DNA of 64,000 nt from Coriobacteriia bacterium. GTDB lineage: Bacteria > Actinomycetota > Coriobacteriia > Anaerosomatales > SLCP01. Positions 8,613 to 45,900 of this stretch are shown piece after piece. The notes below the pieces were generated by a model. The model saw only the letters and a program-made list of their open reading frames with translations, was not told where the DNA came from and did no database searches. Where the stretch lies: assembly GCA_019429145.1 (NCBI GenBank), contig JAHYJI010000003.1, positions 47 through 64,046 of the forward strand, written 5' to 3'. The position numbers and the translations under genes are program-made. Every line of letters begins with the position of its first letter. Position 1 is the first letter of the stretch.

Positions 8613-8643
8613 CACGTCACGCCCCGCCCAGGGATTCGAACGG

Positions 8644-9480: not shown

Positions 9481-9482
9481 TG

Positions 9483-10358: not shown

Positions 10359-10375
10359 GTACCCAGGGAGCATCG

Positions 10376-11764: not shown

Positions 11765-11774
11765 TGTCTGGTGC

Positions 11775-11998: not shown

Positions 11999-12000
11999 AG

Positions 12001-13107: not shown

Positions 13108-13113
13108 GCCACG

Positions 13114-14224: not shown

Positions 14225-14232
<8 letters not shown>
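13114..14232 (+). CDS. recF: DNA replication and repair protein RecF
   Basis: Walker A GKNAAGKTNILEA, signature/Walker B LLLLDDVMSELD. TTG start at 13114. Confidence 0.9.
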
Positions 14233-16794
<2,562 letters not shown>

Positions 16795-16815
16795 GGCCGG
16801 TCGGGCGGGTGACGC

Positions 16816-17295
16816 ATGGCGAACGGGCCACAACGGCGGGAACCGAGAAGGTTCGAGCCCCCTCCATGGGAGCGGGAGCAGTTCGAGCGTCTCGAGCGGG
16901 AACGGGCGCGCGACGTCGTGCCTGTGGCGCCGGAGGTGGCCCCGGACGCCGAGGCGAGGCCGGAACCGGCCACACCGGAGCCGAAACCCTCCGCGACGGA
17001 GCCAGAACCGGGGCCGGCCGGGCCGCCAGGCGTGGACGCGATGCTGCTCGCGCTGAAGGCCGAGGAGCCGTCTGCGGTGGAGGCGGCGTGGAAGTTCGGG
17101 TTGGCTGCGGCCGTGTTGGTGGGAACGATAGGTTTCATGCTCGTGATCTGGGGCATGGTCGCGCTCGCGCGCAGCGCGGGCAGCGGGCCGGCCGGAATCA
17201 TGGGGGCGACGATCATGAGCGTGATGGGCGGCCTGTTCGTAGGGCTGGCCACATGGATGGGTGCGCGTAGTCTCAAACAGCGAGGAGTGCTCTAA
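16816..17295 (+). CDS. Hypothetical Pro/Glu-rich protein with two C-terminal TM helices
   Basis: 159-aa ORF filling the gyrB-gyrA gap exactly. Hydrophobic segments: FGLAAAVLVGTIGFMLVIWGMVAL and IMGATIMSVMGGLFVGLATWMG. No recognisable family. Confidence 0.5.
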   Translation: MANGPQRREPRRFEPPPWEREQFERLERERARDVVPVAPEVAPDAEARPEPATPEPKPSATEPEPGPAGPPGVDAMLLALKAEEPSAVEAAWKFGLAAAVLVGTIGFMLVIWGMVALARSAGSGPAGIMGATIMSVMGGLFVGLATWMGARSLKQRGVL

Positions 17296-19890
<2,595 letters not shown>

Positions 19891-24663: not shown

Positions 24664-24812
24664 CTCCCTTCATGCTCCTACGCTGTACGTTCCACTATCA
24701 TACGTGAAGCTATCCGCCGCGGCTTTGGTCGCCGGGGCGCGCTCCGCTGGATGCGCTGACCCGGGGACGGGCGCGCGTCTGTCGGTCTCAGCGGTGCTGA
24801 GCAGGGAGATGC

Positions 24813-24842
24813 TTGACGCTCGCGCGAGCGTTGGGCTATGGT
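24813..24842 (+). promoter_or_regulatory. Candidate sigma-70-type promoter of tRNA-Ile
   Basis: TTGACG (24813-24818), an 18-nt spacer, then TATGGT (24837-24842), about 27 nt before the mature tRNA 5' end. Confidence 0.5.
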
Positions 24843-24868: not shown

Positions 24869-24945
24869 GGGCCCGTAGCTCAGTTGGTTAGAGCGCACGG
24901 CTGATAACCGTGAGGTCGTTGGTTCGAATCCAACCGGGCCCACCA
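24869..24945 (+). tRNA. tRNA-Ile (anticodon GAU), CCA encoded
   Basis: Hand-folded cloverleaf. Acceptor GGGCCCG/CGGGCCC, D arm GCTC-AGTTGGTTA-GAGC, anticodon arm CACGG-CTGATAA-CCGTG, T arm GTTGG-TTCGAAT-CCAAC, then ACCA. Confidence 0.9.
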
Positions 24946-25683
24946 TCAAGAACCAGTTCAGGCGGGGCACTCGCCCCATCTGTTTCTGTCGAGAGACAGA
25001 CGTCGTTCGAGATCAAGCCGCCATCCATCACGCGCCGGGCTCACGGTCGAAGCAACCCCTCGACGCTAGATACTCGGCGAACCGCCTGTCCGCGTATCCT
25101 ATGCGGTCGCAGAGCCAGGTGGTCACAAGGCCGCCATCTCGTCTGAGGCATCCTCGAATACGATCGCGTCATGGAGTTCATTGGCGAGCGCAGCCTCAGG
25201 TCTCGGCTGTGAGGCCTCAGTCTGGTTCGACGGTTCACGTTCGAAGAGACCCAGCACGAACTCGCCGAGTTCGACGAATCTCCCCGGCTCCAAGCCCGGT
25301 CAGTTCCCGGAACTCAGGTTGTCGCATACCGATCACGCAGGCGAGGAACAGCGGGGCGACAAAGCGGTGGTCCGCGGGCGGCTGCGCACAAGGTCGACGT
25401 AGAGCATCTGATGCGCCGCGCTGGTTCGTCGAGGCTCAGATTAGCGAAGCCTTCGGCAAGCACGATCTTCGCCATTCGTCATGGCGTCTAGGAGAGGACT
25501 TCGGCGGAATCCACACAAGTGCCACAACCCATCTGGGTATATAGGTGGAGTTGAGCGTGAAAAACTCAAGTTCTGCGCATAGCCGACAGCCAAACGTGGC
25601 TGAGGTCAAGATTGAGGCGATTCCCGGTGCGCGTACAGATTGTTCGTGCCCGCAGACCGAAACACAGATCTCGAGTTCTAAGA

Positions 25684-28600
25684 ATGCGTAAGGGTCCAGC
25701 CACAGTCTGGTTGCTGGTGGCGGTCTTGCTGCTCGGTCAAGTGTCGGTATTCCCCGCCTCGGAGGCCAGCGCATCCGAGCGTTCGTTCGCTGCGGGGTCG
25801 CTCATCATCCCGATGGACACCACCTACCAAAACTACGGTATGTGGAAGGCGTACGGCCTTGTCAACGAGTTGCTGCTTCACGGCATTCCGGTTGCCTGGG
25901 CGATCGCGCCCGACAAGAGCTTTGGCGGGATAGACTTCACCGCCACGACGCAGGATTACCGGACCGCCGCCGGCCCAACCACCGTCAACTACACCGGCGG
26001 GCCGTTCATCATCGAGGCCGCCTTTGCCGCGCAGGCGCAGCCGATCATCCAGGCGTGGTGGGCGAAGTACGCCAACCAGCCAACGGTGCATGAGGCGACC
26101 AGTCCGTTCACGGCGAACGTTGACATCGTCCTCAAGAGCCCGCCCAGGATCGCGCTCGAGGCGACCAACGCGAATATCGCCATGGCCTACTTCAACGCCG
26201 CCGGCATCACGGACTTGGATGGCAACGCGTGGACGACCGCGTCGCCGAATGTCCTGGACCAGCTTGAGATCGTCAACGGTGGGCTCTTCACGCAGGGCGA
26301 CTGCTCGCAGCGCAAGTTCGATATCTTCGTGACGCCGCACAACGGCGGCTACAGCTACTCGCTCACCGACCCCCTCAACCTCGGCACGCGGACGTACGCG
26401 CAGCTGGACTACTTCGTGAATCAAGGCGGCGGCTGGCTCGCGCTGTGCCACTCGATACTCAGCAACGAGAACGCCATCGCCGACCTGTACAACAACAGCA
26501 GCCCCGCCGTGCGTTCCCTGTTCACGGCGAGCGGGGGCGGCGGCTTCCTGACACGGACGGGTTTCACCACCATCGCGAACAAGGCCGGAACCTGGACGGT
26601 CGGCGAGCCTGAGCTCCCGCTCGCGCAGGCGGTGCCCACCACGGTGCTGCAAGCGCTGCCGGGCGGCTCCGTGCAGACGTGGGACCGCACGAGTGTGAGC
26701 TACTTCGACCAGACCGAGCGGGTCGCAAGCTTCATCACTCCCACGAACACCTACGACTGGGCGATCAACGGCGTCGCGCACGACGGCACCACGCTTGGCA
26801 AGGTGACGTTCCTGGGCGGCCACTCCTACGCCACGTCGTTGCCGTACACCTCCAACTACGAAGCGCCGTACCTGCGCTTCTTCTTCAACGCGCTCTTCTT
26901 CAACGGCGGTGCGGTGGCCAAGCTGGATCTGGCCGTGACGTCTCAGGACATCCCGCAGGGCCTGACGTCCGTGGTGGTAGTCAGCCTTCTCAATACGGGC
27001 TCGAGCGTGGCGGAGGGCACGCAAGACGTCACCATCCGGCTGCCGCAGGGCGTCACGTACGTTGAGACGGTTGCGGGTTACCCCGCGCCGCTTTCGGTCA
27101 CGACGGACCCGGTAACGAACGCCACTGTGCTCACATGGGGCAGCTCGTTGGGGAACATCCCGGGCGGGGAGACTGCCACGCAGATCAGGGTCAGTCTGAC
27201 GCCGGACACCCTCGGCGATACCTACTGCGCTCACCTCGACGCGCGATATGGTGACGTCTACGGAGAGTCGTTCACGGCCAGCCTGTGCAGGACCGTGAAC
27301 GTCTATCCGGCCGCCGACCTTGAGATCACCAAGACGCTGAACGCCCCCAGCAGCGAGATGTACGCGGGGTCGCTTGCCGAGTGGACCCTCTCCTTCCGCA
27401 ACACGGGTGATGCGGACCTGCTCGACGGCGTTGTGGAGGACCTGCTGCCTCTGGGGTACGCCTACAAGAGTTCGTCGCTCGCGCCCTCGAGCGTACTGCA
27501 GCAGCCTGACGGCACCACGCGCATCAGATGGAACGTGGGGACGGTCGTCGCCAAGGCGGGCGCCCGGACGATCACGATGTCAGCGTTCGCGCCAAGTGAC
27601 CCCGGGCAGTACACCAACACCGTCACCCTCACGGGACCGGACTGGGCCGGTTTCCTGTACCAAGCCTCCGCGGCCTCCGATGTGGAGGTCATCCCACCAC
27701 CCATCCAATTGCGGAAGTCGGTCTCCCCGGAAGGCGACGTGGAGGTCACCACGCCCGGTCAGGTGCTGACCTACACGCTGCGGCCGCACTACTCGGGCGC
27801 GTATCTCCTGCAGAACGCGCTGGTCTCGGACGCAACGCGCGCCTACACCACCTACGTTGCGGGCAGCGCGAACGCAGGGGGGACGCTGGGGTTCACGCCG
27901 CTGCCCGAGGAGGACGGCGATGACGCGGAGATGCGGATCGCGCTGACCGCCAGCCCCACAGCGGTGCCGCTGGGCGGCGAGGTCACCGTCACCATGACCT
28001 TGACCAACAAGACCGGCACGGCACGGACACTGGACCTGTCCGTCTTAGAGGCGCTGGACGGAGCGACCCTCACCGGCCCGACCAGTGCGACCGTGGCGGC
28101 GAACTCGACATTCACGCTCACCTACACGGCCACGATGACGTCCATCGGCGAGCGTGTGTTCGAGGCGCAGGCGGAGAACGTGACCCTCGACTACAGCTCG
28201 CATGTCGCTCTCTCGAACACCGTACTGGTGACGAGCCACCTGAACGCATCGCCCTCGAACGACGTCGTCACGTGGCGCCTGGGGAGCAACACGCCTCCGG
28301 TGCCCGGCGAGACCATCCTCACCGGCTATCCGGCCGGTGTGTATGCGTTCCGGGGCGGGAACAAGAAGGAGTTCTCGAAGTACCGGCAGGCGACTGACGT
28401 GTGGCAGTTGGAGGCGCAGCCCACCAACGGCATCGAGAAGGGCGGCGCGCTCACGGTCGACAGCGCCACGGGAACCATCTACGCCAGCGAGGGCAACTCG
28501 AAGTGGTTCTACGAGTACAGCATCACCACGAACACCTGGACCCGCTTGACCGATGCTTCCGCGAACTTCAACGAGGGCGGAGGGATCCAGTTCCTGCAGG

Positions 28601-30849
28601 TGGGCGGCGTGAAGTACGTCTTCGCCGTGCTGGGCAACGGCACCGCCTTCAGGCGCTACAACATCGCCACCGACAACTGGACCAACCTGGCCAACGTGCC
28701 GGTCACCGTCAAGCGCGGCGGTGCGATCACCACCGACGGCACGTATCTGTACGTCCTGCAGGGCGACGGCAAGAAGGGCTTCTACCGCTACGACGTGAGC
28801 GCCAACACGTGGACCGCGATGGCGCCCACGCCCGCCAATGTCAGCTGGGGAGGCGCGCTCACCAGCGTGGACACCAACGGCGACGGGGCGATCGACTCCA
28901 TCTACGCGCTGCAGGGCGACGGCAAGACGGGCTTCTGGCGCTACAGCATCGCCACCAACACGTGGACGGCGATGGCGGTGACCCCTGGTGCGGTCAAGGC
29001 CGGCGGCGCACTCACCAACGACGGCCAGTACATCTACGCGCTCCAGGGAGGCACGGCTCTGTTCTGGGGCTACTCCGTCGCGGACAATGCGTGGACGGCA
29101 CTCCAGCCGACCAACTTCACCGGGTCGGTGGGAGAAGGCGGTGCGCTCGTCTTCGATCCCGGCGTGAGCCCCACGGGCTATTTCACGCAGATGAGCGCCA
29201 GCGCAGCGCTCATCACGTCCGAGGAGACCATCACGGTCCAGCTGGCGGCCTCATCGTCGTACAGCGTGGGCGGCGTCGTCCCCGGTCCGATGACGATCAC
29301 CTCGACGGGGGGCGCTTCCGCGGTCCTCGTGAGCGGCCCGACACTGGTCAGCGCGGACGATCATACGAGTGGCATCAGCGACTACGTCGTCTACGAGTGG
29401 GTCTACCGTGGCATGGCGGGGTCGGGCCCCGGCACCCTCACCTTCGTCGCCGGGGCCACGGGCACCAGCCCGGACTCGACGTTCCCGGAGGCGAAGACGC
29501 TCGGGATCATCGTCTCTCCGGAGCTGACGTTTCAAGTGCGGGTGTTCGACGCGGACCAGGTCCCCGACTACGAGACCCAGATTGTGAACACGGGCATGAT
29601 CAGCGACCGTGCTGCCCTCGGCTACGGACTTAACTCCAACGCGGTGACGAACATGCTCATCAGGCCCCGGCTGAGCATCGCCAAGTCCAACGACCCCATG
29701 GGCCTGGTGCATCAGGGTGATGAGATCACCTATAGGGTCGTCATCAGGAACGACGGGACCGGCCCTGCGCACAACATCGTGATCACTGACCCGATACCGC
29801 AGTACACGACCTACGTGCCGGGAAGCGCGGCGATCCAGAGCACGGACGTGCAGAGCGTCGGTCAGGTGACGGAACCGGCAGATCCGGGCAGTCCGCTTCT
29901 GGCCACGCTGGACAGGCTCGGCTCCGACCAGTCCGCAACGCTCACGTTCCGCGTGCGTGTCGACGACGGTCTTTCGCCGGGCTCCTACCAGATCCCCAAC
30001 ACGGCCACCGTGACGGCGGCCATCGTACCGCCGCTCACCAGCAACACCGTCAACAACCAGGTCGACGTCGTGCCGTCGTTCTCCCTCGAGAAGATCGCAA
30101 GCGTCGAACGGGTCACCAATGTCGGCGAGGCCATCGAGTACACGGTCCTCGTCACCAACACCGGCGACGCGGCGTTGCACAACCTCACCGTCAATGACCC
30201 GATGCTGCCCGGCCTCGCGCCTGTCCTGGGTACCGACGCGGTCCACAACGTCGGCGACATCGACAACGACGGCGTCCTCGACGTGATGGAGATGTGGTAC
30301 TTCACCGGCAGCTACACCGTGACCGAGTCGGACATCGACAACGGCCCTGAGGGCTACACGATGCTCACGAACACGGTCACCGCGGACACCGACGAGACCG
30401 ACCCCGAGACGGCCTCGGCCGATGTGATGCTGGACATCGCGTTCTCGTCGCTCACCATCGCCAAGAGCGTGCTCCCCGGGGCCGGCTACGACACCCCGGA
30501 TCAGGCGACCCCGTTCATCATCCGCGTCGTCAATGAAGAGCGGGGCTACTCGACGGACGTGGTTCTCACCGACGGACAGGCCGTGGAGGTCATGGCCCCC
30601 AGGGGCACCTTCTCCATCAAGGAGATCGCGGTCCCCGTGGAGTACCGTCTGACCGGCGACGTCACGGTCACGCGGTACGTGGACGGAGTGCCGCAGGAGT
30701 CATTCGCGCTCGGCAGCGACAGCCTTCTGGACGTCCAGCCGGGCAGCGACTACCGGGTGACCTTCACCAACCGGTTCGAGCACCTTCTGTACTTCCACAG
30801 CTCCTCGCGCGCCGTGAACACGTTCGCGCCAGGAGGGGTGCTGCCATGA
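25684..30849 (+). CDS. Giant secreted surface protein: signal peptide, ~440-aa N-terminal domain, DUF11-type repeats, six-bladed Kelch-like propeller, more DUF11 repeats, C-terminal prealbumin/SpaA-like domain; no anchor
   Basis: Start moved to Met25 (MRKGPATVWLLVAVLLLGQVSVFPASEASA|SE, Sec signal). DUF11-like units: LEITKT...FRNTGDADL...YTNTVTLTG, LSIAKSNDP...VIRNDGTGPAHNIVITD, FSLEKIASV...LVTNTGDAALHNLTVND. C-terminus ...VTFTNRFEHLLYFHSSSRAVNTFAPGGVLP has no LPXTG or TM segment. Confidence 0.85.
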   Translation: MRKGPATVWLLVAVLLLGQVSVFPASEASASERSFAAGSLIIPMDTTYQNYGMWKAYGLVNELLLHGIPVAWAIAPDKSFGGIDFTATTQDYRTAAGPTTVNYTGGPFIIEAAFAAQAQPIIQAWWAKYANQPTVHEATSPFTANVDIVLKSPPRIALEATNANIAMAYFNAAGITDLDGNAWTTASPNVLDQLEIVNGGLFTQGDCSQRKFDIFVTPHNGGYSYSLTDPLNLGTRTYAQLDYFVNQGGGWLALCHSILSNENAIADLYNNSSPAVRSLFTASGGGGFLTRTGFTTIANKAGTWTVGEPELPLAQAVPTTVLQALPGGSVQTWDRTSVSYFDQTERVASFITPTNTYDWAINGVAHDGTTLGKVTFLGGHSYATSLPYTSNYEAPYLRFFFNALFFNGGAVAKLDLAVTSQDIPQGLTSVVVVSLLNTGSSVAEGTQDVTIRLPQGVTYVETVAGYPAPLSVTTDPVTNATVLTWGSSLGNIPGGETATQIRVSLTPDTLGDTYCAHLDARYGDVYGESFTASLCRTVNVYPAADLEITKTLNAPSSEMYAGSLAEWTLSFRNTGDADLLDGVVEDLLPLGYAYKSSSLAPSSVLQQPDGTTRIRWNVGTVVAKAGARTITMSAFAPSDPGQYTNTVTLTGPDWAGFLYQASAASDVEVIPPPIQLRKSVSPEGDVEVTTPGQVLTYTLRPHYSGAYLLQNALVSDATRAYTTYVAGSANAGGTLGFTPLPEEDGDDAEMRIALTASPTAVPLGGEVTVTMTLTNKTGTARTLDLSVLEALDGATLTGPTSATVAANSTFTLTYTATMTSIGERVFEAQAENVTLDYSSHVALSNTVLVTSHLNASPSNDVVTWRLGSNTPPVPGETILTGYPAGVYAFRGGNKKEFSKYRQATDVWQLEAQPTNGIEKGGALTVDSATGTIYASEGNSKWFYEYSITTNTWTRLTDASANFNEGGGIQFLQVGGVKYVFAVLGNGTAFRRYNIATDNWTNLANVPVTVKRGGAITTDGTYLYVLQGDGKKGFYRYDVSANTWTAMAPTPANVSWGGALTSVDTNGDGAIDSIYALQGDGKTGFWRYSIATNTWTAMAVTPGAVKAGGALTNDGQYIYALQGGTALFWGYSVADNAWTALQPTNFTGSVGEGGALVFDPGVSPTGYFTQMSASAALITSEETITVQLAASSSYSVGGVVPGPMTITSTGGASAVLVSGPTLVSADDHTSGISDYVVYEWVYRGMAGSGPGTLTFVAGATGTSPDSTFPEAKTLGIIVSPELTFQVRVFDADQVPDYETQIVNTGMISDRAALGYGLNSNAVTNMLIRPRLSIAKSNDPMGLVHQGDEITYRVVIRNDGTGPAHNIVITDPIPQYTTYVPGSAAIQSTDVQSVGQVTEPADPGSPLLATLDRLGSDQSATLTFRVRVDDGLSPGSYQIPNTATVTAAIVPPLTSNTVNNQVDVVPSFSLEKIASVERVTNVGEAIEYTVLVTNTGDAALHNLTVNDPMLPGLAPVLGTDAVHNVGDIDNDGVLDVMEMWYFTGSYTVTESDIDNGPEGYTMLTNTVTADTDETDPETASADVMLDIAFSSLTIAKSVLPGAGYDTPDQATPFIIRVVNEERGYSTDVVLTDGQAVEVMAPRGTFSIKEIAVPVEYRLTGDVTVTRYVDGVPQESFALGSDSLLDVQPGSDYRVTFTNRFEHLLYFHSSSRAVNTFAPGGVLP
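28336..29200 (+). repeat. Six tandem ~45-50-aa Kelch-like repeats inside the giant CDS
   Basis: Repeating GGA(L/I)T..dg..(I/L)YA(L/S)(Q/E)G.g...F.RY.i.TNTWT....P. Examples: GGALTVDSATGTIYASEG..., GGAITTDGTYLYVLQGDGKKGFYRYDVSANTWTAMAP, GGALTNDGQYIYALQGGTALFWGYSVADNAWTALQP. Confidence 0.7.
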
Positions 30850-31535
30850 CGTCCAGAGGCCGCCATCCCGTGAGCGTTCGTGTGGTCGCCCTGGGCGCCG
30901 TCATGCTCGTGCTGGGGGCCGGCTTCGCGTACGCCGTGATTGCCAGCCGTGCACTCAACACGGTGACCACGCCGGCGCTCACGGTGGCCGTCGAGGAAGG
31001 AACCGATGGTGAGCACTACGAGGGATGGACCGACCCCGGCACCCAGTGGGGTGCGACGGTTCCCAAGTACGTCCGCTTCACCAACACCGGCCAGGCCCAC
31101 GTGGTCATGCGCGTCAGCTACGCACAGGCGTGGACGCTCGAGACCACCGAGGGCGGCGTTCCCGTCACGAAGCAGCTCAGCAACACCTACCGGACGGAGA
31201 CGGCCGAGTACGCGGTCGCCACACTCGACTGGACGTCTGCCGGCCTTCTCAACACCGACCTGTGGTTCGACGGCGGTGACGGCTGGTACTACTACCGGCA
31301 CGTGTTGGCGCCGGGCGAGAGCTCTGACGCCGTGCTGGCTTCGGTGACCTTCGTGGAGCCGGCACCGTACGGGTACGACGGTGCCGAGTACCAGCTCCGC
31401 TTCATCACCGAATCCTGCCAGTACAGCACGAACCTCCTGAACAAGAACCAGGAGGCGGTCTGGACGACGTTCGGCATGACCTACGAGGAAGTCGGCGGGG
31501 CGCTGGTCTGGAGCCAGACCGCGCCGGGCGTGTGA
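30846..31535 (+). CDS. TasA/camelysin-like SipW-dependent exported protein, paralog 1
   Basis: 229 aa. N-terminal VVALGAVMLVLGAGFAYAVIAS, core VPKYVRFTNTGQAHVVMRVSY, GGDGWYYYRHVLAPGES and YQLRFITESCQ. The ATG overlaps the stop of the giant gene (ATGA). Confidence 0.7.
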   Translation: MTSRGRHPVSVRVVALGAVMLVLGAGFAYAVIASRALNTVTTPALTVAVEEGTDGEHYEGWTDPGTQWGATVPKYVRFTNTGQAHVVMRVSYAQAWTLETTEGGVPVTKQLSNTYRTETAEYAVATLDWTSAGLLNTDLWFDGGDGWYYYRHVLAPGESSDAVLASVTFVEPAPYGYDGAEYQLRFITESCQYSTNLLNKNQEAVWTTFGMTYEEVGGALVWSQTAPGV

Positions 31536-31564
31536 GCGCCGGGCAGCAAGGGGCGAGAGACGCG

Positions 31565-32176
31565 ATGGGCAAGCACAGGAAATGCGGCAACAACTGGTTC
31601 ATGAAGCTGCTGCTGGCATGCTTCGTGGGCCTCACGCTTGCCGCGATCTCCTACACGCTCGCGTTCTTCACCGACGAGGGCTCGGCGGAGAACTTCATCA
31701 CCGCGCGGTCCCACAACGTGGCCCTTGTCGACCTCTTCGACAAAGGCCAGTTCACGCTTCCGGGCGACACCGTGCCCAAGGTGGTCTACATGCGCAACAC
31801 GGGTGGCGCAAAGGCCGTGATCCGGATGCGCCTGACGCCGTCGTGGGACCCGGCACAGGCGGGCGAGTACGTCCTCGACCCCGCGGTCGTGACCGTTCAC
31901 CTGGGCGAGACGGTGGCAAGCGACTGGACGTTCTACGACGGCTGGTACTACTACAACCACATCCTGGAGCCGGGCGACGCCACCGGCCATCTGGTGGAAG
32001 CGATCGAGCTGGGCGTGGTTGCTAACGACGCGCACGCCGCGGACTACTCGGGGGCTTCGTACACGCTGGACGTGGAGGGCGAGTCGCTCCGGGCGGACGC
32101 AACCCTGACGCAGGACGAGTGGAACATCGGCTTCCAGGTTGACGCGGGCACCGCGATCACCTGGCTGACACCCTAG
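31565..32176 (+). CDS. TasA/camelysin-like SipW-dependent exported protein, paralog 2
   Basis: From ATG 31565: MGKHRKCGNNWFMKLLLACFVGLTLAAISYTLAFFTDEGSAENFIT. Core VPKVVYMRNTGGAKAVIRMRL, YDGWYYYNHILEPGDA, YTLDVEGESLRA. Confidence 0.75.
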   Translation: MGKHRKCGNNWFMKLLLACFVGLTLAAISYTLAFFTDEGSAENFITARSHNVALVDLFDKGQFTLPGDTVPKVVYMRNTGGAKAVIRMRLTPSWDPAQAGEYVLDPAVVTVHLGETVASDWTFYDGWYYYNHILEPGDATGHLVEAIELGVVANDAHAADYSGASYTLDVEGESLRADATLTQDEWNIGFQVDAGTAITWLTP

Positions 32177-32184
32177 GAGGCGAC

Positions 32185-32691
32185 TTGAAGATCGTTGGCG
32201 GCGTCATCAACGTACTGACTGCACTCGCGTATGTGGTGGTGGTGTTCGTCCTCGTCATCGCGGCGCCGCTTGCGCTCGGCTACAACCCGGTGGTCGTGCT
32301 GAGCGGGAGCATGGAGCCCACCTACAAGGTGGGGAGCGTCATCTACTACAAGCAGGTGGCGTTCGACGACATCCAGGTGGGCGACGTCATCACCTACAAG
32401 TCCCGGGACGACGTTGGCAACGCGGTCACCCACCGCGTGCACGCCATCAACGAGGCCGAGCGGACGCTCACGCTCAAGGGGGACGCCAACCCCTCGCCCG
32501 ACCCAAGCGCGATCCCCTACGGAATGGTGCAGGGGGAGGTGATGCTGTACGAGCTGCCCTACGTCGGCTACATGGTCCAGTACCTGCGCAACTACTACTT
32601 CATTGCGGCGCTGTTCGTGGTGTTCGTCGCCAAACTGCTCTACGACCGGCTCTCAGGAGGCAAGGCAGATGCAGAAGAGGAGTCTCAATAG
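32185..32691 (+). CDS. sipW: Signal peptidase I, SipW/archaeal-ER type (S26B)
   Basis: 168 aa with N-terminal TM helix, catalytic VVLSGSMEPTYKVGS, VTHRV, LKGDANPSPD, and a C-terminal TM helix. TTG start 4 nt after AGGAGG (32175-32180). Confidence 0.85.
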   Translation: MKIVGGVINVLTALAYVVVVFVLVIAAPLALGYNPVVVLSGSMEPTYKVGSVIYYKQVAFDDIQVGDVITYKSRDDVGNAVTHRVHAINEAERTLTLKGDANPSPDPSAIPYGMVQGEVMLYELPYVGYMVQYLRNYYFIAALFVVFVAKLLYDRLSGGKADAEEESQ

Positions 32692-32824
32692 CAGCCGAGC
32701 CTCGCGTGTGGGGTCGCTGCTCCGGCAGCGCACCGTAAGGGGGGTGATGCGGGCGCACACGTGAGGATCGATCCATGGCACCAGACTGAACCGTATGCAC
32801 GAATGGACTGAAGGAAGGATCATC

Positions 32825-33625
32825 ATGCGTAAGATCAAGAAGTCGCTGCCGCTGTTCGGCATGATCGCGCTGGTTGTCGCGATCGCCATCGGTGGCACCT
32901 TCGCCTACTTCTCCCAGACGGGAACGGCGGAGAACTACCTGACCACGATGACCTACGACTCGACCATCACGGAAGACTTCACCCCGCCGGCCGACGGCGC
33001 GTTCGCCCCGGACGTCGAGATCGACAAGGAGGTGGGCGTCACCAACACCGGCGAGATTCCGTTCCTCGTCCGCATCAAGTACGAAGAGGCTTGGAACGGT
33101 ACCCCCGTGTCGCTCACCTACGCCGACGCGGTCAACACCCCGTCGGGTTCGGAAGTCTGGATCTACGACGGCGACACCGAGGACGACTCGGTCGTCAAGA
33201 AGATCAAGTACGGCGAGACCGCCGGCTGGACCTACGGTGGCGACGGTTACTACTACTACCTGGCCGAACTGGATCCGGGCCAGACCGCGCCGAGCTTCAT
33301 CGACTCCATCATGCTGAAGGCGTCGACCGTCAACGAGGACACCAGCTGGGTGCTGACGTGGTGGGACGGCACCGCCGCGGACTACGTCGATGAGACCTTC
33401 ACGAGCCAGGGCGCAGTCGACGATCGCAAGGCTGCAATCATGCTCATGGAAGACGGATCGTATCTCGTCAACGTCATCGAGAACACGAAGACCACGCTCG
33501 ACATGGAGGGCGGCTACACGCTGACCTTCACGATGGAGACCGTCCAGGCCATCGAAGAGGGCGCGGATTCGTGGACGACCCCGACCGTTACAGACGTCAT
33601 TACGTTCCTCGGCGGCGTTCTGTAG
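32825..33625 (+). CDS. TasA/camelysin-like SipW-dependent exported protein, paralog 3 (candidate major subunit)
   Basis: From ATG 32825: MRKIKKSLPLFGMIALVVAIAIGGTFAYFSQTGTAENYLTT. Core DKEVGVTNTGEIPFLVRIKY, GGDGYYYYLAELDPGQT, YTLTFTMETVQA. It has its own 130-bp upstream gap and is followed by strong hairpins. Confidence 0.75.
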   Translation: MRKIKKSLPLFGMIALVVAIAIGGTFAYFSQTGTAENYLTTMTYDSTITEDFTPPADGAFAPDVEIDKEVGVTNTGEIPFLVRIKYEEAWNGTPVSLTYADAVNTPSGSEVWIYDGDTEDDSVVKKIKYGETAGWTYGGDGYYYYLAELDPGQTAPSFIDSIMLKASTVNEDTSWVLTWWDGTAADYVDETFTSQGAVDDRKAAIMLMEDGSYLVNVIENTKTTLDMEGGYTLTFTMETVQAIEEGADSWTTPTVTDVITFLGGVL

Positions 33626-33662
33626 TCAGCCCCTTAGGGGCTAGTCGCTCTTACGAGTGGTG

Positions 33663-33692
33663 GCACCCGGTGGCGCTTGCGCCACCGGGTGC
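33663..33692 (+). terminator. 13-bp perfect hairpin after paralog 3 (terminator/attenuator candidate)
   Basis: GCACCCGGTGGCG-cttg-CGCCACCGGGTGC, preceded by a smaller hairpin AGCCCC-tta-GGGGCT (33628-33642). No U-tract. The next gene starts 30 nt later. Confidence 0.55.
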
Positions 33693-33721
33693 GCCCCGGA
33701 AGATCCAGGAGGGGAGGTGCC

Positions 33722-35497
33722 GTGAACAACGCCTATCGACGCTCGATGACTGCAGCGCTGCTCGCGGCACTGCTCCTCGTCGCGCTTGGTGCTGCGCCCG
33801 TCGGGGCGTTAGCCGCAGTCGCCATACCCACCACCACCTACGATGGCTGGCGCGCGGACATGGACGGGAAACTGCTCACCGACAGCGAAGGCTACTACGT
33901 CCTCACGGTCACGCCCCAGATGGCGGCGGACGGCGACATCACGCTCCAGTGCAACCGATTCGCGCGGCTGTTCCTGAAGGACTTCCGCAACATCTCCAAC
34001 ACCGACACGACGTACAAGATGAAGATCGTCAACGCCAGCGGCAAGACGATCACCTACCGCGACTACGCGTTCACCACCCACAACGTGCTGCCCCGCACGG
34101 ACAACATCTTCGGACCCGCCACCGGCGCGATCACCGACTCGCCGGAGCTGGGCAGGGGGTTGGGCTCGGCCTATGCCGCGATGCTCCCCACCATCCTGAC
34201 CGCCGGGACCTATACCGACCTCTGCATCGACACGCAGGGGTTCGACGGCAATAACATGAACCTCATGATGGTGCCGCTCCGCTGCACGAACGACGCCATC
34301 TGTTCGTTCTACGGCGTGGACCACACGTTCGATGTCACGCTTCCCCAGATCATGCATCTCGACGAGAATCTCGCCGCGCGTGGCTACTCCAGCTACGCCC
34401 ACTACCTCAAGAGCTACTACGGCGTCGCCAGCCTCTCCAACCTGCCGCCGGCGACCGTGTACAACATCCTCGGCACCACCAACGGCGCACAATCCGCCAT
34501 CACCAACTGGCGTGACAATACCATCGGCGGGAAGCCCATCCCGGCCTCCGAGCTCGGTAGCCTGACGAACGAGTTCAGGATCTGGGGGCTTCTCCACCTC
34601 AACGGCGATTCCAGGGACGCGGCGCAGTATCCGTACGTCCCCAACTTCTTCATGATGGAGACCGATCCCGAGGTCCTCCAGCTGGCCTACGACTACCTGT
34701 ACACTGACGGTCTTCGCTTCAGCTTCGACCAACTCACCCAGCCGTTCGACACCACGGACAACGAGCACGGCCGCGGCGGCGACTTCGGCATCAAGGCGTA
34801 TGTGAACAAGAGCCCGGGCTCCACCGCCCACGTCAACAGCGTCTTCGGCGGCGTCACCCTGGCCGACGGCGATGAGCTGAAGCTCGACAACGTGACGGCG
34901 GGCCTCTACGTCCCCAACGCGTGGAACCAGTACCGCCTCTACGACTTCGGATTCAACCTTATCTTCACAACTGACGAGGTCTACACGCTCGCTATCACGA
35001 AGACCGGCCGGGACCTGAACGGCCCGCGGCTTGTTCCGGGCGACGTCATCGAGTGGCGGATCGTGGTCAGGAACACGGGTCCGACGGTGTTGACGAACGT
35101 CGAGGTCGTCGATGACGTCCCATCGACGACGGCGTACGTCCCGGGCTCGATCACCGGGCGCGGAGCTGATGATTCCGCGTCTCGACGCCTGCGATGGCTG
35201 GTGGGCACGCTGAACCCGGGCGAGTCGGTCACGCTCACCTTCCGGTCGACCGTCAACGCGGGCCTGCCCAACGGAACGGAGATCCGCAACCAGGCTGCGG
35301 TGCATTCCGATCAGGTCGGCTGGCGCTACTCGGACGATTCGAGCACGCCGATTCCCGGCGACGCCACGCTGCTGCGCACCGGAGGGAACGACTGGATATG
35401 GCTGGGCGTCACCGTGGCCGCAGTGCTGTTGGGGCTTGTGGCACTGCTGTACGGGTTGCTCCTGAAGCGCCGGAAGCGTAAGCAGGCATCGTCCTAG
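33722..35497 (+). CDS. Cell-wall-sorted surface protein: novel N-terminal region, C-terminal DUF11 domain, LLRTG sorting signal
   Basis: GTG 33722 follows AGGAGGGGAGG. Signal peptide TAALLAALLLVALGAAPVGALA. DUF11-like LAITKTGRD...VVRNTGPTVLTNVEVVDDVP. C-terminus ATLLRTGGNDWIWLGVTVAAVLLGLVALLYGLLLKRRKRKQASS. Confidence 0.8.
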   Translation: MNNAYRRSMTAALLAALLLVALGAAPVGALAAVAIPTTTYDGWRADMDGKLLTDSEGYYVLTVTPQMAADGDITLQCNRFARLFLKDFRNISNTDTTYKMKIVNASGKTITYRDYAFTTHNVLPRTDNIFGPATGAITDSPELGRGLGSAYAAMLPTILTAGTYTDLCIDTQGFDGNNMNLMMVPLRCTNDAICSFYGVDHTFDVTLPQIMHLDENLAARGYSSYAHYLKSYYGVASLSNLPPATVYNILGTTNGAQSAITNWRDNTIGGKPIPASELGSLTNEFRIWGLLHLNGDSRDAAQYPYVPNFFMMETDPEVLQLAYDYLYTDGLRFSFDQLTQPFDTTDNEHGRGGDFGIKAYVNKSPGSTAHVNSVFGGVTLADGDELKLDNVTAGLYVPNAWNQYRLYDFGFNLIFTTDEVYTLAITKTGRDLNGPRLVPGDVIEWRIVVRNTGPTVLTNVEVVDDVPSTTAYVPGSITGRGADDSASRRLRWLVGTLNPGESVTLTFRSTVNAGLPNGTEIRNQAAVHSDQVGWRYSDDSSTPIPGDATLLRTGGNDWIWLGVTVAAVLLGLVALLYGLLLKRRKRKQASS

Positions 35498-36112
35498 ATG
35501 AGCGGGTCGAGGGCCAACGGGTCCGGCTGGGTGCTGTTGGGCATCGCATTGCTCGTGTTCAGCGTTGCCGTTGCGGTATACAACCTGTGGCCGGACATCA
35601 CGTTCCAGGCCGGCCTGGTCGAGCCCTCGGTGCCGTACCCGTCCAAGTTCGCCGACGCGCCTGCGGGTGAGGTGCCGTCAGACGCCACTCAGGCGATCCC
35701 TGCCGAGCCGAGGGTCGTCATCCCCCGCATCGCCGTGGACGTACGCATCTACAAGGGCGATGCGCAACGGGCGCTCAAGCTCGGCGTGTATCACCACGCC
35801 GGGACAGCCGCCCCCGGGGAGCCCGGTAACATGGTCATCGCCGGCCACCGCAACAGGCGGCAGTTCGCGCCGCTGTCCTATCTCGAGAGCGGCGACGTGA
35901 TCCTGGTCTACTGGGATGGCGCCGAATACGGCTACAGGGTCACGCAGGTCTATCAGGTCGAGGCGGTGGAGACGTCGGTGCTTGCGCGGGGAGACACCGA
36001 GATGCTGACCCTCTATACCTGCACCCCGCGATTCCTGGGCAACAAGCGGACCGTCGTGGTGGCCGAGCCACTCACGGGCGTCCCCGAGGCAACTTTCGGA
36101 GACTCCCAGTAA
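35498..36112 (+). CDS. Sortase (membrane-anchored transpeptidase, class E/F-like)
   Basis: 204 aa with N-terminal TM helix, catalytic His in MVIAGHRN, Cys in MLTLYTCTP, and Arg in GNKRTVVVAE. Starts directly after the stop of the LLRTG protein. Confidence 0.85.
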   Translation: MSGSRANGSGWVLLGIALLVFSVAVAVYNLWPDITFQAGLVEPSVPYPSKFADAPAGEVPSDATQAIPAEPRVVIPRIAVDVRIYKGDAQRALKLGVYHHAGTAAPGEPGNMVIAGHRNRRQFAPLSYLESGDVILVYWDGAEYGYRVTQVYQVEAVETSVLARGDTEMLTLYTCTPRFLGNKRTVVVAEPLTGVPEATFGDSQ

Positions 36113-36120
36113 CATCAGAA

Positions 36121-36149
36121 AGTGGTTCGAATCCACTCGGGCCCACCAT
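36121..36149 (+). repeat. tRNA 3'-end remnant (T arm, acceptor 3' strand, CCA) = att-like direct repeat of tRNA-Ile
   Basis: AGTGGTTCGAATCCACTCGGGCCCACCAT versus tRNA-Ile GTTGGTTCGAATCCAACCGGGCCCACCAT. The four differences keep the T stem paired (AGTGG/CCACT). No 5' half is present. Confidence 0.7.
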
Positions 36150-36160
36150 GAGACAACACG

Positions 36161-36186
36161 TCAGACGGGGTATCTGCCCCGTCTGA
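36161..36186. terminator. Hairpin after the tRNA remnant and after the convergent DUF1295 gene
   Basis: TCAGACGGGG-tatctg-CCCCGTCTGA, followed by TTGTGTTAT on the plus strand. Confidence 0.5.
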
Positions 36187-36243
36187 TTGTGTTATGCGGA
36201 ACTCCTCCGCTCCCGGATGTGGTCATGGACCGGCAGCTCCGCG

Positions 36244-37029
36244 TCAGCCGCCCTTGCGCCCGATCCACGGCACCAGCACCGGCGTCCGCCGCTTGTAGTC
36301 CTCGTACTCCTCGTGCCCGCCCCACTTCTCCTCGGCCTTCCTCTCCAGAAGAGGGATGCCGCTCACGCGCGTGAGCAGCAGGTAGACGAAGACCGGCGAT
36401 ACCAGAGTCGCGAGTTGCCAGCCGCGAAGAACGGGGAGCGCGATGAGCGCCACGCCGGTCCAGAGCACGATCTCGCCGAAGTAGTTGGGGTGGCGCGACA
36501 GCGCCCACAGGCCCGAGCTGATGAATGCACCTTCGTTTGCAGGTTGGGCCCGGAAGCGGCTCTTCTGGTAGTCCGCTACCACCTCGATCGAGAATCCCGC
36601 TGTCCACGCTGCCAGCCCCACGAGCATGAGGATGTCGACCCCGGCACGCGTCTGTGAGGTGACGGCGGCAAGCGCCGCTGCGAGCGTCAGGCTCACCCAC
36701 AGCCCCTGCAGCGTCCACGTCATAAGGAATCGGGCGAAGGAGCTCTTGAGCTCGTCGAAGCGGCTGTCTTTGCCGGATCGCAGGACGCGTCGGAACAAGA
36801 AGGTACCCAGTCGCCCTGCCCATACGAGCACGAGCACCAGCAGCAGCATGGAGCGCGCGTCGGCGTACGCGCTCGACGCGACAGCGAACACCATGACCGA
36901 GATGTACGTGAGGCTGCCGGTCAGGTCGTAGTAGCGCTCGGTGCGCATCACGTAGGAGGGGATGAAGACCACCCACTGCACGAGGAAGGCGAGCGCCACC
37001 CCGAGTGCGAACACCGGAACCCCGCCCAT
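36244..37029 (-). CDS. DUF1295 membrane protein (steroid 5-alpha-reductase/isoprenylcysteine methyltransferase-like fold)
   Basis: C-terminal 261 codons of the 418-aa ORF, from MGGVPVFALGVALAF... Multi-TM, with motif LSRHPNYFGEIVLW. An alternative ATG at 37068 exists. The upstream part of the ORF overlaps the SDR gene and is Arg-rich junk. Confidence 0.8.
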   Translation of the reverse strand: MGGVPVFALGVALAFLVQWVVFIPSYVMRTERYYDLTGSLTYISVMVFAVASSAYADARSMLLLVLVLVWAGRLGTFLFRRVLRSGKDSRFDELKSSFARFLMTWTLQGLWVSLTLAAALAAVTSQTRAGVDILMLVGLAAWTAGFSIEVVADYQKSRFRAQPANEGAFISSGLWALSRHPNYFGEIVLWTGVALIALPVLRGWQLATLVSPVFVYLLLTRVSGIPLLERKAEEKWGGHEEYEDYKRRTPVLVPWIGRKGG

Positions 37030-37052
37030 TACCTGTCCTGCCGCGTCCGCAC

Positions 37053-37820
37053 CTACGCTGACGTCCATCCCGCGTCGGTCGCCAGGACGGCTCCGTTGAT
37101 GCCCTTCGCCTCGTCGGAAGCGAGGAAGAGCGCGACGTGCGCGATGTCCTCGGGCTTGAGCTGCCACGGGATCATCCCGTACCACTTCTGCAGGCGCTCG
37201 CTTGCCTTCGGATCCATCTTCGTGGGGTCGACGCTCTGCATGATGTTGGTCTCGACCGCTCCGATCGCGATCAGATTGCACCGGATACCGTCGTGCGCGT
37301 AGATGTAGGCGGTGCTCCGGGTTAGGCCCTTGAGTGCATGCTTCGAAACGGTGTAGGCGGCACCCGCGGCCGCGCCTCCCTGTCCGGCGACCGAGCCGCT
37401 GTTGACGATGGACCCGCCGCCGCCCTTGATCATCTCCGGCACGGCCGCCCGTGTCAGGCACATCGGGCCGTACACGTTGATGCCCATGACCCTGTTCCAC
37501 ATCTCGTCTTCGAGTTCGGCAACGCCCTGGTTGAGGTCCATCACGCCTGCGTTGTTGCAGAGCACGTCGAGACGCCCGTAGGCGTCGACAGCACTGGCGA
37601 CGATGCGCTCGCAGTCCTCACGCTTCGAGACGTCGCCCTGCACCCCGACCACATCGCGACCCGCGTCGCGAAGCTCAGCGACTATGCCCTCGAGCGACTC
37701 CTGATTCCAGTCGGCTGCGACGATCTTTGCGCCCTGCGCCGAGAAGATCTGTGCCATCGATCGGCCCATACCTGAGCCTGCGCCGGTGATGATCGCAACC
37801 TTACCCTCGAGCGTCAACAT
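37053..37820 (-). CDS. SDR-family oxidoreductase
   Basis: From Met21: MLTLEGKVAIITGAGSGMGRSMA (TGxxxGxG), with catalytic YTVSKHAL (YxxxK). Confidence 0.85.
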   Translation of the reverse strand: MLTLEGKVAIITGAGSGMGRSMAQIFSAQGAKIVAADWNQESLEGIVAELRDAGRDVVGVQGDVSKREDCERIVASAVDAYGRLDVLCNNAGVMDLNQGVAELEDEMWNRVMGINVYGPMCLTRAAVPEMIKGGGGSIVNSGSVAGQGGAAAGAAYTVSKHALKGLTRSTAYIYAHDGIRCNLIAIGAVETNIMQSVDPTKMDPKASERLQKWYGMIPWQLKPEDIAHVALFLASDEAKGINGAVLATDAGWTSA

Positions 37821-37960
37821 GTCTCTCTCCCTCTTCCCGTGTTCGTCGAACATGCCGGTGTTCTTCCGTTCCAGAACCACAGTCCGAATACTTCCAGGCC
37901 GTCAATCTGGAATGTACCCCTCGCGAACCAGCGCGCCGACGCCTGCTGTCTCCTGCGCGG

Positions 37961-42996: not shown

Positions 42997-45900
42997 CTAC
43001 CCTCCGAGCAGCATGACCTTCACGTGGTGCTCCCGGCCGTCGCCTGACAGCGGCACGAGGGGTTCGTCGAGGACGGCGCCATCGAGCTCGATCCAGGCCA
43101 CGCCCCGGTTCACGCCGCGGGGGTTCTCGACCGTGATGTGGTAGGTCGAGTCCCCGTCCCGGTAGATCATCTCGAACCCGGGCCACGTCTTGGGTATGCA
43201 GGGGTCGACGGTGAAGTGCCGTTGTCCGCTCTGTGCCAGGGGGCGCAGGCCGAGCAGGTTGTTGACGGTCACCCGGTAGAACCACGACGCCGAGCCGGTG
43301 TACCAGGTCCACCCGCCCCGGCCGGTGTGCGGGGCGACCGCGTAGACGTCGGCGGCCACCACGTACGGCTCGACCTTGTAGCGGGCCACGCCCCCGGCAT
43401 CGAGTGCATGGTTGATCGGGTTGATGAGATCGATGAGCGAGACACCCTCGTCGCCGTCACCCCTCAGCAGGTGTGCGAGCGCGACCCAGATCGCCGCGTG
43501 CGTGTACTGCCCGCCGTTCTCGCGAACGCCGGGCACGTAGCCCTTGATGTAGCCGGGGTCATGCGACATGCGATCGAACGGCGGCGAGAGCAGGGCGACC
43601 AGCCCGTCCTCCATCCGCACCAGTTTCTCCTCGACCGATTCGAGCGCGCGGGCGGCGCGAACGGGGTCGCCCTGGCCGGAGATGACCGCCCATGCCTGGG
43701 CGATCGCGTCGATCCGGCACTCCTCGGCGTCCTTGGTACCGAGCGGCGTGCCGTCGTCGAAGTACGCACGGCGGTACCAGCCGCCGTCCCAGCCGGACTC
43801 GTCGGCCGCTGCGACGAGCCGGGCGGCGTGTTCGCGGTAGCGCTCGGCGCGATCCGTCTCGCCCTTCAGCTCGCAGAGCGGAGCGAATGCCCGGAGTGTC
43901 ACGTCGAGGAACCACGCGAGCCACACGCTCTCACCCAGGCCTTCGTGACCGACGCGGTTCATGCCGTCGTTCCAGTCGCCGCCGCCGATGAGCGGGAGCC
44001 CGTGCGCGCCGACATCGAAGGCGAGATCGAGGGCGGCCGTGCAGTGCTCGTAGACGCTCGCGGTCTTCTCGCTCACCGTCGGCTGTACGTAGGCGTCCTC
44101 GGCACCCGGCTCCAGCAGGGGCGCCTCGATAAAGGGAGTGCGCACGTCGAGCACGCTCGTGTCCCCGGTGGCAGCGACGTACTCGGCGGTCACGAAGGCG
44201 AGCCAGTGGCGGTCGTCGGTGATGCGGGTGCGCACGCCCCGGCCGGAGAGAGGCTGCCACCAGTGCAGCACGTCGCCCTGTTCGAACTGGCGGCGCGAGG
44301 CCTCGACGATCTGGGCGCGCATGAGGTCGGGGCGTGCAAGCGCAAGTCCGAGCGTGTCCTGCAGTTGGTCGCGGAAGCCGAGGGCTCCTGACGACTGGTA
44401 GGTTGCGGTGCGTCCCCACAGCCGGCATGCGAGCGACTGGTAGAGCAGGCGCCCGTTGACGAGCAGGTCCAGCGTCGGGTCCGGGGTGCTCACCTGGACG
44501 GTCTGTAGCATCCCGGCCCACATCGCGCGGACTCCCTCGAGTGCGCGGTCGACCGACCCGGGGGAGCGGTAGCGTGCGACGAGGCCGCGGGCTTCCTCGA
44601 GCCGCTCGGTCTGGCCGAGCATGAACGTGACCTCGCTGCTCTCGCCGGGTGCGAGCGAGACCCCGGTCATGAGCGCGCCGCAGTTGTCGTGGAAGCGCCC
44701 GCTGCGCCCGTCGAGCCGCTCGCGTTCCATTGCGGCGGGGGCGGCGGGTCGGCGGTTGCGGCCCACGAACTCGCTGCGGCTCGCGGTCCACGAGTGGAGT
44801 GGCCGGTCGCACGCGAGGAAGGTCGGCCGCCCGGGGAAGTCGGGATTGTAGTGGTTGTGCGCGGTGAGCATGTCGTGCTCGGCATCGAACCACGTGACGA
44901 CGAGATGTTGTGCCTGGCTGCGCGATGAGCCGAGCACCCACTCGACGAACTGGGTCGCGGTGAGCCGCCTCGGCACGGCCGAGACGTTGGTCAGGCGAAG
45001 TCGTACGAGACGTACGGGGTCCTCGGCGGGTACGAACCAGTCGAGTTCGTGGGCGATCCCGTGGGAGATGTGCTCGAAGCGCGTGTAGCCGAACCCGTGG
45101 CGAACGACAAAGGGCTCGGTCGAGCGACAGGGGAGCGGGGTGGGGCTCCAGTACTCGCCGGTCTCCTCGTCGCGGATGTAGATGACCTCGCCCGAGCCGT
45201 CCGAGACCGGGTCGTTGTTCCAGGTGGTGATCCGGTTCTCGTGGCTGTTGACCGCCCACGTGCATCCAATGCCCGCCTCTGAGACCAGGCAGCCGAACTC
45301 GGGCGTGGCCATGACGTTGACCCACGGTGCGGGAGTGGTCGCGCCATCCTCGAGCACGATGACGTACTCGCTGGTCTGCGGGTCGAAGCCGCCCAGACCG
45401 TTGTCGTGCACGAGCGATGGCCGCTCGAAGGCAGGCGCGTCGAACTCGCGCGGCTCTGACACCAGTTCCAGCGCCGGTGGGTCGACCGGCCGCTCGCCGC
45501 GGCGGTTGAGTTGCAGTTCGATGGTGCCTCCATCGCCCTCGAGCACGGCGCGCGCCACGCTCTCGAGCAGGTTCAAGACGTCGGGGTGCATCTGGTCGGA
45601 GCGGCGCAGGAAGATGCCGCCCGGCTTGTCGACGAGCTGCAGAGCGTGTCCGGTGCGCACGAGGAGTCGCAGCCGGTCGTCGAGCTCGTCGGAGTAGGCG
45701 GTGGGGCGCGTGTTGAGCACGACGAGGTCGGAGACGAGTCCCTTGTGCCGCCAGTACTGGTGGGCAAGGAGCGCCTGGCGTACGAGAGGTGCATGCTCCG
45801 GCTCGTCGATGCGCACGAGCAGGATGGGGTTGTCCCCGGAGATGCCGAGCGACCAGAGCCCGGAGATCGGCAGGCCATTCTCGACCGGCGTCTTGGCTTT

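Follow-up and report, generated by a model that had tools for sequence, protein, structure and literature searches.

Integrative elements of actinomycetes that target the 3' ends of tRNA genes, for example pSAM2 in tRNA-Pro, carry int, xis, replication and transfer genes. The island described here lies behind the tRNA-Ile gene of an uncultured Coriobacteriia bacterium, at positions 24947-36149 of a 64-kb window (the whole stretch of DNA that was analysed; all positions refer to it). It resembles pSAM2-type elements in its actinobacterial host, in the tRNA 3' end as target and in an att segment of the element that would rebuild the gene, whereas int, xis, replication and transfer genes are missing. 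With a probability somewhat better than even, our analyses point to an island acquired by site-specific recombination at the 3' end of tRNA-Ile(GAU), with the crossover at the junction of T stem and acceptor stem. It is an integrase-less tRNA island, either decayed or resembling the cis-mobilizable elements (CIMEs), thus of an ordinary and well-known kind, and it leaves the current understanding of how such islands arise unchanged.

The tDNA islands collected by Islander (PMC4383910) consist, like the locus here, of an intact tDNA and its cognate 3' fragment in the same orientation, with the island in between. The spacing of 11,203 bp is within their size range of 2-200 kb, and the fragment is located outside of conserved protein domains, starting 8 nt past the stop codon of a sortase gene. 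The T-stem/acceptor-stem junction ('J') is one of three crossover subsites of tRNA-targeting islands (PMC4383910); in the J class, as here, the fragment starts in the T-arm region and sequence of the element keeps the tRNA gene whole. In contrast to the Islander examples, the repeat runs about 45 nt past the tRNA into a terminator-like hairpin, and its two copies carry different T-stem alleles, each of them compensated. An integrase gene was not found between the repeats, and the Islander integrase filter would reject the island. The locus may hence illustrate how a tRNA-linked island escapes standard island finders, which would drop it for want of an integrase. In ICEberg 2.0 (PMC6323972), a CIME is an element without integration or transfer genes in which attL and attR are kept. 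Here as well, attL/attR-like repeats are found at both ends, with cargo only and no integration, excision or transfer genes in between. Described CIMEs are mainly from streptococci, whereas this island is from an uncultured Coriobacteriia. No cognate integrative and conjugative element (ICE) or integrative and mobilizable element (IME) with these att alleles was present in IMG/VR or in phage or plasmid records.

The window contains a single tRNA-Ile(GAT) gene (ARAGORN). Its terminal 29 nt, including the base after CCA, read GTTGGTTCGAATCCAACCGGGCCCACCAT (24918-24946), and a second copy of this end, AGTGGTTCGAATCCACTCGGGCCCACCAT, is found at 36121-36149. The ends of the island are made up of the following features:

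24813-24842, plus strand: promoter-like site of tRNA-Ile (TTGACG, 18 nt, TATGGT), host-owned and conserved throughout the relatives; promoter scan
24869-24945, plus strand: tRNA-Ile(GAT) gene, anticodon GAU, CCA encoded; ARAGORN, Rfam tRNA 78.5 bits
24918-24989, plus strand: left repeat, attL-like, with T arm, acceptor 3' strand, CCA and proximal hairpin; repeat family D10, fold, terminator scan
24935-24946 and 36138-36149, plus strand: candidate crossover block CGGGCCCACCAT, an identical 12-mer in both copies, proposed from the sequence
36121-36149, plus strand: right repeat, attR-like, a 29-nt tRNA-Ile 3' fragment with T stem AGTGG/CCACT; sequence, repeat search, allele comparison
36155-36193, plus strand: distal hairpin, native tRNA-Ile terminator, now 11.2 kb away; fold -27.4 kcal/mol, z = -6.3, 81-84% identity to the relatives L081/L082
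Proximal junction sequence: CCAACCGGGCCCACCATCAAGAACCAGTTCAGGCGGGG

That the 3' end of tRNA-Ile recurs with paired T-stem changes had been the starting point of the original prediction, and it is borne out. The two 29-mers differ at four sites, tRNA positions 49/65 and 50/64. From the proximal to the distal copy, pair 49/65 changes from G-C to A-T and pair 50/64 from T-A to G-C, and the T stem is fully paired in both (GTTGG/CCAAC and AGTGG/CCACT, respectively). The repeat had been described as 29 nt long; these are present, but similarity runs on through the hairpin, 24920-24989 matching 36123-36192 in the same orientation at 76% over 70 nt. A 25-nt pattern that spans the shared part, GGTTCGAATCCNNNCGGGCCCACCA, has exact matches at 2 places only in the 64-kb window, with none expected by chance (100 shuffles). 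Furthermore, the 48 nt located 3' of CCA align between the two copies better than in 5000/5000 shuffles, and each is the sole match of the other at 28/48 or more positions within the window. The longest identical runs between the copies are 12-13 nt. On its 5' side, homology ends at 36121, and the 8 nt to the left of it match the tRNA at 1/8 positions. A chance match or a dispersed non-tRNA repeat was ruled out, since in relatives the 70-nt block was homologous to nothing but the tRNA-Ile 3' end with its terminator.

As relatives we used eight uncultured metagenomic genomes (L081, L082, L083, L086, L095, L097, L100 and L158), the contigs of which were reached via homologues of the bifunctional-nuclease gene adjoining the tRNA. 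Their nucleotide divergence from the window is 18-27%, with L081 and L082 nearest. Both flanks are collinear with the relatives at 80-84% identity, the left one with the dnaA side, gyrB, gyrA, an HlyD/ABC/MacB transporter and the nuclease gene, the right one starting with the CMAS gene (window 37960 on); no identity jump was seen beside the island. DNA located 5' of tRNA-Ile, including the promoter-like site, aligns with L081-L086, L097, L100 and L158. In L081, L083, L086 and L158, the CMAS gene comes immediately after tRNA-Ile and its terminator; in L082, a beta-helix gene, DUF1295 and CMAS come after them. In each relative whose contig reaches the tRNA, the tRNA 3' end and the hairpin are both present once only, and a second tRNA fragment, a second hairpin or the island cassette was found in none of them. 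With the same flanks and a single tRNA-Ile, without fragment or island, these relatives therefore represent empty sites. An insertion at the 3' end of tRNA-Ile, and the existence of empty sites by which to recognize it, had both been anticipated and are thus established in these five genomes; a separate 29-nt fragment, which might have turned up in relatives as well, is present in none. When reference genomes were scanned with the DUF1295 flank protein, conserved motifs saturated the result, and all homologues returned were distant (68% or less) and belonged to other phyla.

The hairpins behind tRNA-Ile are of two unrelated types, one of which is common to both window copies, L081 and L082. 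A terminator-like hairpin had been noted behind the distal copy at 36161-36186; we confirm it and find that the fold extends over 36155-36193. Its present neighbours are the sortase operon on one side and, on the other, the convergent DUF1295 gene. Its identity is 84% to L081 and 81% to L082; L081 and L082 are themselves 81% identical here, and the flanking genes are roughly equal in this respect. The distal hairpin being level with its L081/L082 orthologues and with the flanks, it is the native terminator, and the only hairpin that is clearly so. The proximal hairpin (core ~24959-24982; -18.2 kcal/mol, z = -2.9), in which the terminator scan gave matches at 24961-24977, reaches only 64-68% identity to the distal, L081 and L082 hairpins in the 48 nt after CCA (68% to the distal one), which argues that it was brought in from outside. 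It appears to be a foreign, element-borne substitute terminator from a lineage with the same terminator type.

Three T-stem alleles were found across the window and the relatives. AGTGG/CCACT is shared by L083, L158, L086, L097 and L100/L101, which make up four separate lineages, and therefore is the ancestral allele. GATGG/CCATC is found in L081 and L082, and GTTGG/CCAAC only in the working tRNA of the window and in none of the relatives. The distal 29-mer is identical (29/29) to the intact tRNA-Ile 3' end of L083, L086, L097, L100 and L158, in agreement with the earlier suggestion that it represents a functional allele. The T stem of the working tRNA, in turn, shares the derived pair G49-C65 with the sister genomes L081 and L082, which fits a native origin of the present T arm.

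These alleles narrow down where the exchange may have taken place. A crossover to the left of position 49 is at variance with the lack of homology before 36121, and one far into the hairpin with the native distal hairpin. The T loop, with the positions from 50 to 64, was ruled out, since an exchange there would give mismatched hybrid T stems, whereas both stems are perfectly paired. As the differences at 49/50/64/65 co-segregate and homology stops at 36121, a conservative crossover would be limited to the 12-mer CGGGCCCACCAT; the next difference on its 3' side is 2 nt after CCA. Most likely the crossover hence occurred within this block at the T-stem/acceptor junction, the counterpart of the J subsite in tDNA islands (PMC4383910). 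The present T arm would then be host-derived and the distal T arm element-derived, and the distal copy probably is a mosaic of an element T arm and the host terminator. The original prediction of a replacement 3' end supplied by the element would thus apply to the proximal hairpin but not to the whole 3' end, since paired stem changes and the absence of homology 5' of 36121 make the T arm likely the host's. Its view of the distal copy as a displaced host end would likewise hold for the terminator hairpin, but not for the T arm, which likely is the element's. The differing, compensated T-stem alleles serve as natural markers in this respect, and sequence data by themselves rarely allow a crossover to be narrowed down to 12 nt.

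We hence assume that an incoming element carried an attachment segment modelled on the tRNA-Ile 3' end of a related lineage, comprising T arm, acceptor 3' strand, CCA and a terminator-like hairpin. In a conservative site-specific exchange within CGGGCCCACCAT, the host would keep its own tRNA through the T arm and gain the hairpin of the element as a stand-in terminator. As a result, the T-arm copy of the element and the original terminator of the host would end up 11.2 kb downstream. Such an exchange would need a tyrosine integrase, which would no longer be part of the island, having been lost or always been supplied in trans. The remainder would be an att-flanked block unable to move by itself.

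Domain scans of the seven island genes (Pfam, NCBIfam), which are contiguous and could all be annotated, found no recombinase, excisionase, replication, transfer or phage domain, in agreement with the earlier statement that recombinase, excisionase and transfer genes are missing between the repeats. The other large open reading frames (ORFs) scanned on the contig contained no integrase either; they are housekeeping genes (ParB, ParA, RsmG, DnaA, DnaN, RecF, Mrp antiporter and others). When IMG/VR was scanned for a parent element with the tRNA 3' end, none of the three T-stem alleles was found; the matches had unrelated T-stem alleles and were mostly intact tRNA genes with a CAT anticodon, together with some tRNA fragments. 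SipW and sortase queries gave no match in IMG/VR, and neither did blastn of 24918-25700 against plasmid and phage records. Arm-type repeats common to both inner ends of the island were limited to two chance 9-mers.

The composition of the island gives a divided picture. In the compositional check that had been proposed, its dinucleotide signature deviates, with a delta* of 106 compared with 20-64 for other 11-kb chunks, the most deviant value on the contig; its GC content of 0.647, however, is host-like, as is GC at third codon positions (GC3). Taken together this is only suggestive and would fit a donor of similar composition.

Several observations weigh against a junction crossover by an incoming element. 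None of the searches turned up an integrase, a relic of one or a parent element, and because of this the enzymatic step is read from the footprint alone. GC3 of the island (0.86-0.90) is close to that of the flanks (0.78-0.86), and the dinucleotide signal may reflect the amino-acid make-up of surface proteins. Given the 18-27% divergence of the relatives, the empty sites come from other lineages and none from the same species. A right-side attP arm would overlap the sortase coding sequence, which is unusual, and there are no shared arm-type repeats. Finally, the distal T arm equals the commonest host allele at 29/29 positions, a match that would come for free if it simply were a displaced host end. 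The latter was the original version, which would place the crossover in the anticodon loop or further 5', so that the whole present 3' end is the element's and the distal copy the host's. The distal copy, with the allele of five relatives and a hairpin orthologous to L081/L082, then needs no special explanation, and the unique T-stem allele and the diverged proximal hairpin would be foreign together. The price is a later deletion at the right end, by which an integrase module was lost and the fragment cut back to position 49, 8 nt behind the sortase. Deletions are plausible where mobility genes were lost or never present, but with no tRNA homology 5' of 36121 (1/8) this extra one would have to end exactly at the start of the T stem, and about half of the catalogued tDNA islands start their fragments in the T-arm region without any deletion (PMC4383910). 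In weighing the two, we lean toward the junction crossover and regard the original version as a tentative second choice, possible though distinctly less probable.

Entry without an integrase would readily account for the failure to detect such a gene or its relic. RecA could have acted on a Campbell-style circle via the ~70-nt segment, or a ready-made island from a related donor could have been swapped in through the conserved flanks. Homology that reaches into the hairpin and points to a related lineage, and the plausibility of transfer within the bacterial family, speak for this route. Identical runs of only 12-13 nt are, however, very short for a RecA-mediated crossover, and replacement through the flanks, where no identity jump is seen, merely shifts the origin of the repeat structure to the donor; we thus consider a RecA-dependent entry improbable. 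It is still much harder to believe that the cassette is ancestral at the site and was lost in all sampled relatives, with the repeat being a local duplication of the tRNA end. Cargo GC3 is the same as the host's and the region 3' of the tRNA is generally unstable, but the cassette is absent from this site in all eight relatives, and several independent clean losses in at least five lineages would be needed. Moreover, a younger duplicate within the genome would not be expected to show 68% identity between proximal and distal hairpin, below the 81-84% of the distal hairpin with its orthologues in other genomes. Least credible of all is an assembly chimera joined at shared tRNA sequence. The window is indeed a contig of a metagenome-assembled genome (MAG), and two related assemblies break exactly at tRNA-Ile; yet usual assembler k-mers are longer than the identical runs of 12-13 nt, the sequence beyond either junction belongs to one and the same syntenic chromosome, and the repeat copies differ as expected of real attL/attR.

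The block might even be a working hitch-hiker, moved in and out of tRNA-Ile by an integrase encoded elsewhere, either in the same genome or on a co-resident element. We consider this rather unlikely. If it were true, a complete biofilm-fibre/adhesin operon would be shuttled among uncultured Coriobacteriia, and the att segment, with a compensated T arm and a terminator that stem from a related lineage, would preserve as a molecular record which tRNA allele a former host had carried.

Between the two repeats, the island consists of a gene-free spacer and one tightly packed seven-gene operon on the plus strand (25684-36112), followed by the return to the chromosome:

24990-25683: gene-free stretch, 694 bp; six-frame Pfam/PHROG, tblastn, phmmer, Rfam
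25684-30849, plus strand: gene 1, 1721-aa secreted surface protein with Kelch-like repeat region and C-terminal DUF11/CLIPPER and DUF7507; Pfam, NCBIfam TIGR01451
30846-31535, plus strand: gene 2, BsaA/TasA-like SipW-dependent matrix protein paralogue, 229 aa; TIGR04090 47.3 bits, under the cut-off of 60
31532-32176, plus strand: gene 3, BsaA/TasA-like paralogue, 214 aa; TIGR04090 53.4 bits, under the cut-off of 60
32185-32691, plus strand: gene 4, SipW-type (archaeal-type) signal peptidase I; TIGR02228 108.2 bits (cut-off 51.85), Pfam Peptidase_S26
32795-33625, plus strand: gene 5, BsaA-family SipW-dependent biofilm matrix protein, 276 aa, with SipW-type signal peptide; TIGR04090 125.6 bits (cut-off 60), TIGR04088 29.1 bits (cut-off 19)
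33677-35497, plus strand: gene 6, 606-aa surface protein with DUF11 and C-terminal membrane anchor; Pfam DUF11 and DUF7507, translation
35498-36112, plus strand: gene 7, sortase, its stop codon 8 nt ahead of the distal tRNA fragment; Pfam Sortase 105 bits, TIGR01076 69.2 bits (cut-off 39.35)
36244-37068, minus strand: host flank, DUF1295 gene; Pfam, blastn of 36237-37019 against L082, 81%

The product of gene 1 is MBW6467738.1 of a Coriobacteriia MAG, at 100% identity and coverage; because of this full-length match to a public 1721-aa protein, ATG 25684 is the most likely start of the gene. The stretch next to the tRNA, previously delimited as broken reading frames at 24950-25611, accordingly is gene-free as stated, but its bounds are 24990-25683. 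The proposed search for integrase remnants was run on 24946-25720 or parts of it and returned no integrase relic. In all six frames of 24946-25720, Pfam and PHROG gave nothing credible even at permissive thresholds; a frameshift-corrected minus-strand translation of the spacer had no tblastn match in plasmids and phages, and Rfam gave no match to a riboswitch or other known RNA. When a 58-aa piece of the spacer was compared by phmmer with 1.84 billion representative proteins, it returned the ORF of the window itself and one local match of 28 residues to a 7924-aa protein, which we take as compositional. Codon-position GC periodicity is weak and frame-shifting at 25150-25400. A plus-strand ORF at 25101-25544 was ruled out as coding, as GC at its third codon position is the lowest of the three, and a minus-strand APLFLACVIGMRQPEFRELTGL (~25290-25360), read by eye as an integrase box-I motif, was withdrawn after Pfam, PHROG, tblastn and phmmer were negative. 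In other genomes, 0.4-1.5 kb of gene-free DNA precede the big gene of related cassettes, and the spacer may thus be an operon leader. Either it is such a leader or a relic decayed beyond recognition. With no homologue of any kind found and leader-like stretches before the related cassettes, the earlier interpretation of this DNA as a decayed vehicle is not supported.

The prediction that a fibre/adhesin locus is the sole cargo stands: all seven genes encode SipW, BsaA-like, DUF11 or sortase proteins. Their products would make up BsaA/TasA-like fibres processed by SipW and DUF11 surface proteins anchored by the sortase. With a signal peptidase (TIGR02228) beside a BsaA-family protein that has a SipW-type signal peptide, the operon belongs to the SipW-dependent BsaA/TasA fibre operons. 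Like sipW-bsaA of Clostridium perfringens and tapA-sipW-tasA of Bacillus, it combines a SipW-type peptidase with BsaA/TasA-family proteins bearing SipW-type signal peptides. In contrast to these, it unites three BsaA-like paralogues, two large DUF11/CLIPPER proteins and a sortase in one operon, and it is part of a seven-gene cassette found in several uncultured lineages. The locus does not qualify as a prophage, since all seven genes are for secretion or surface proteins and the PHROG scan of the spacer was negative. Neither is it an ICE or an actinomycete ICE (AICE), as the island domains include no relaxase with type IV secretion genes and no FtsK-like Tra with Rep. The three BsaA/TasA-like proteins (30846-33625) share a DGWYYY..L.PG motif, which shows up in the DNA as repeat family D6 at 31278, 31937 and 33242. 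The shared motif points to paralogues produced by duplication inside the cassette.

The nearest homologue of the big protein has ~55% identity. The same seven-gene order is found in L091-L094 and L087, at 47-55% protein identity and in unrelated neighbourhoods, among them a fumarase/LysR region, a prophage end with serine recombinases and a genome of lower GC; none of these cassettes has a tRNA beside it. The cassette therefore is a conserved module located at different chromosomal places. A complete seven-gene surface-fibre/adhesin operon thus behaves as a movable module in the poorly known uncultured Coriobacteriia. In L094 (6357-9172 and 10001-20643), a distant genome, the fibre cassette directly abuts a prophage end, on which genes for tail, holin and amidase proteins are found together with two large serine recombinases.

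The surroundings of tRNA-Ile vary on both sides. In seven relatives, the nuclease gene and the tRNA-Ile promoter are separated by a YjbQ-family gene (PF01894, ~396 nt; L081 9509-9904). In the window, the intervening DNA amounts to just 73 bp (24724-24796), and the gene is also missing in L097. Its absence from the window appears to be a separate deletion immediately 5' of the tRNA. On the 3' side, at least four forms exist among the nine genomes compared: tRNA-Ile leads directly to CMAS; to a beta-helix gene, DUF1295 and CMAS; to a 120-aa ORF and then a P-type ATPase; or, in the window, to the island, DUF1295, an extra SDR gene (37053-37880) and CMAS. The SDR gene is absent here in the relatives whose contigs pass the tRNA. 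Downstream of tRNA-Ile, genes seem to be gained and lost as at a general hot spot. L100 and L101 are contigs of two separate sequence sources that both stop exactly at the CCA end of tRNA-Ile, and L095 and L096 stop before any tRNA could be called. Contig ends at the tRNA hint at strain-level heterogeneity downstream of it in those communities.

On the chromosome, the island is located ~13 kb from dnaA. Window positions 3405-19890 are the replication-origin region, with ParB, ParA, RsmG(GidB), DnaA (10355-11764), DnaN, RecF, DciA, GyrB and GyrA. On the other side of the island, a 2938-aa ORF (42997-51813, minus strand) is collinear with the giant GH94 and glycoamylase gene of the relatives, which resembles a cyclic beta-1,2-glucan synthase; the ORF is conserved in the relatives and has no connection with the island.

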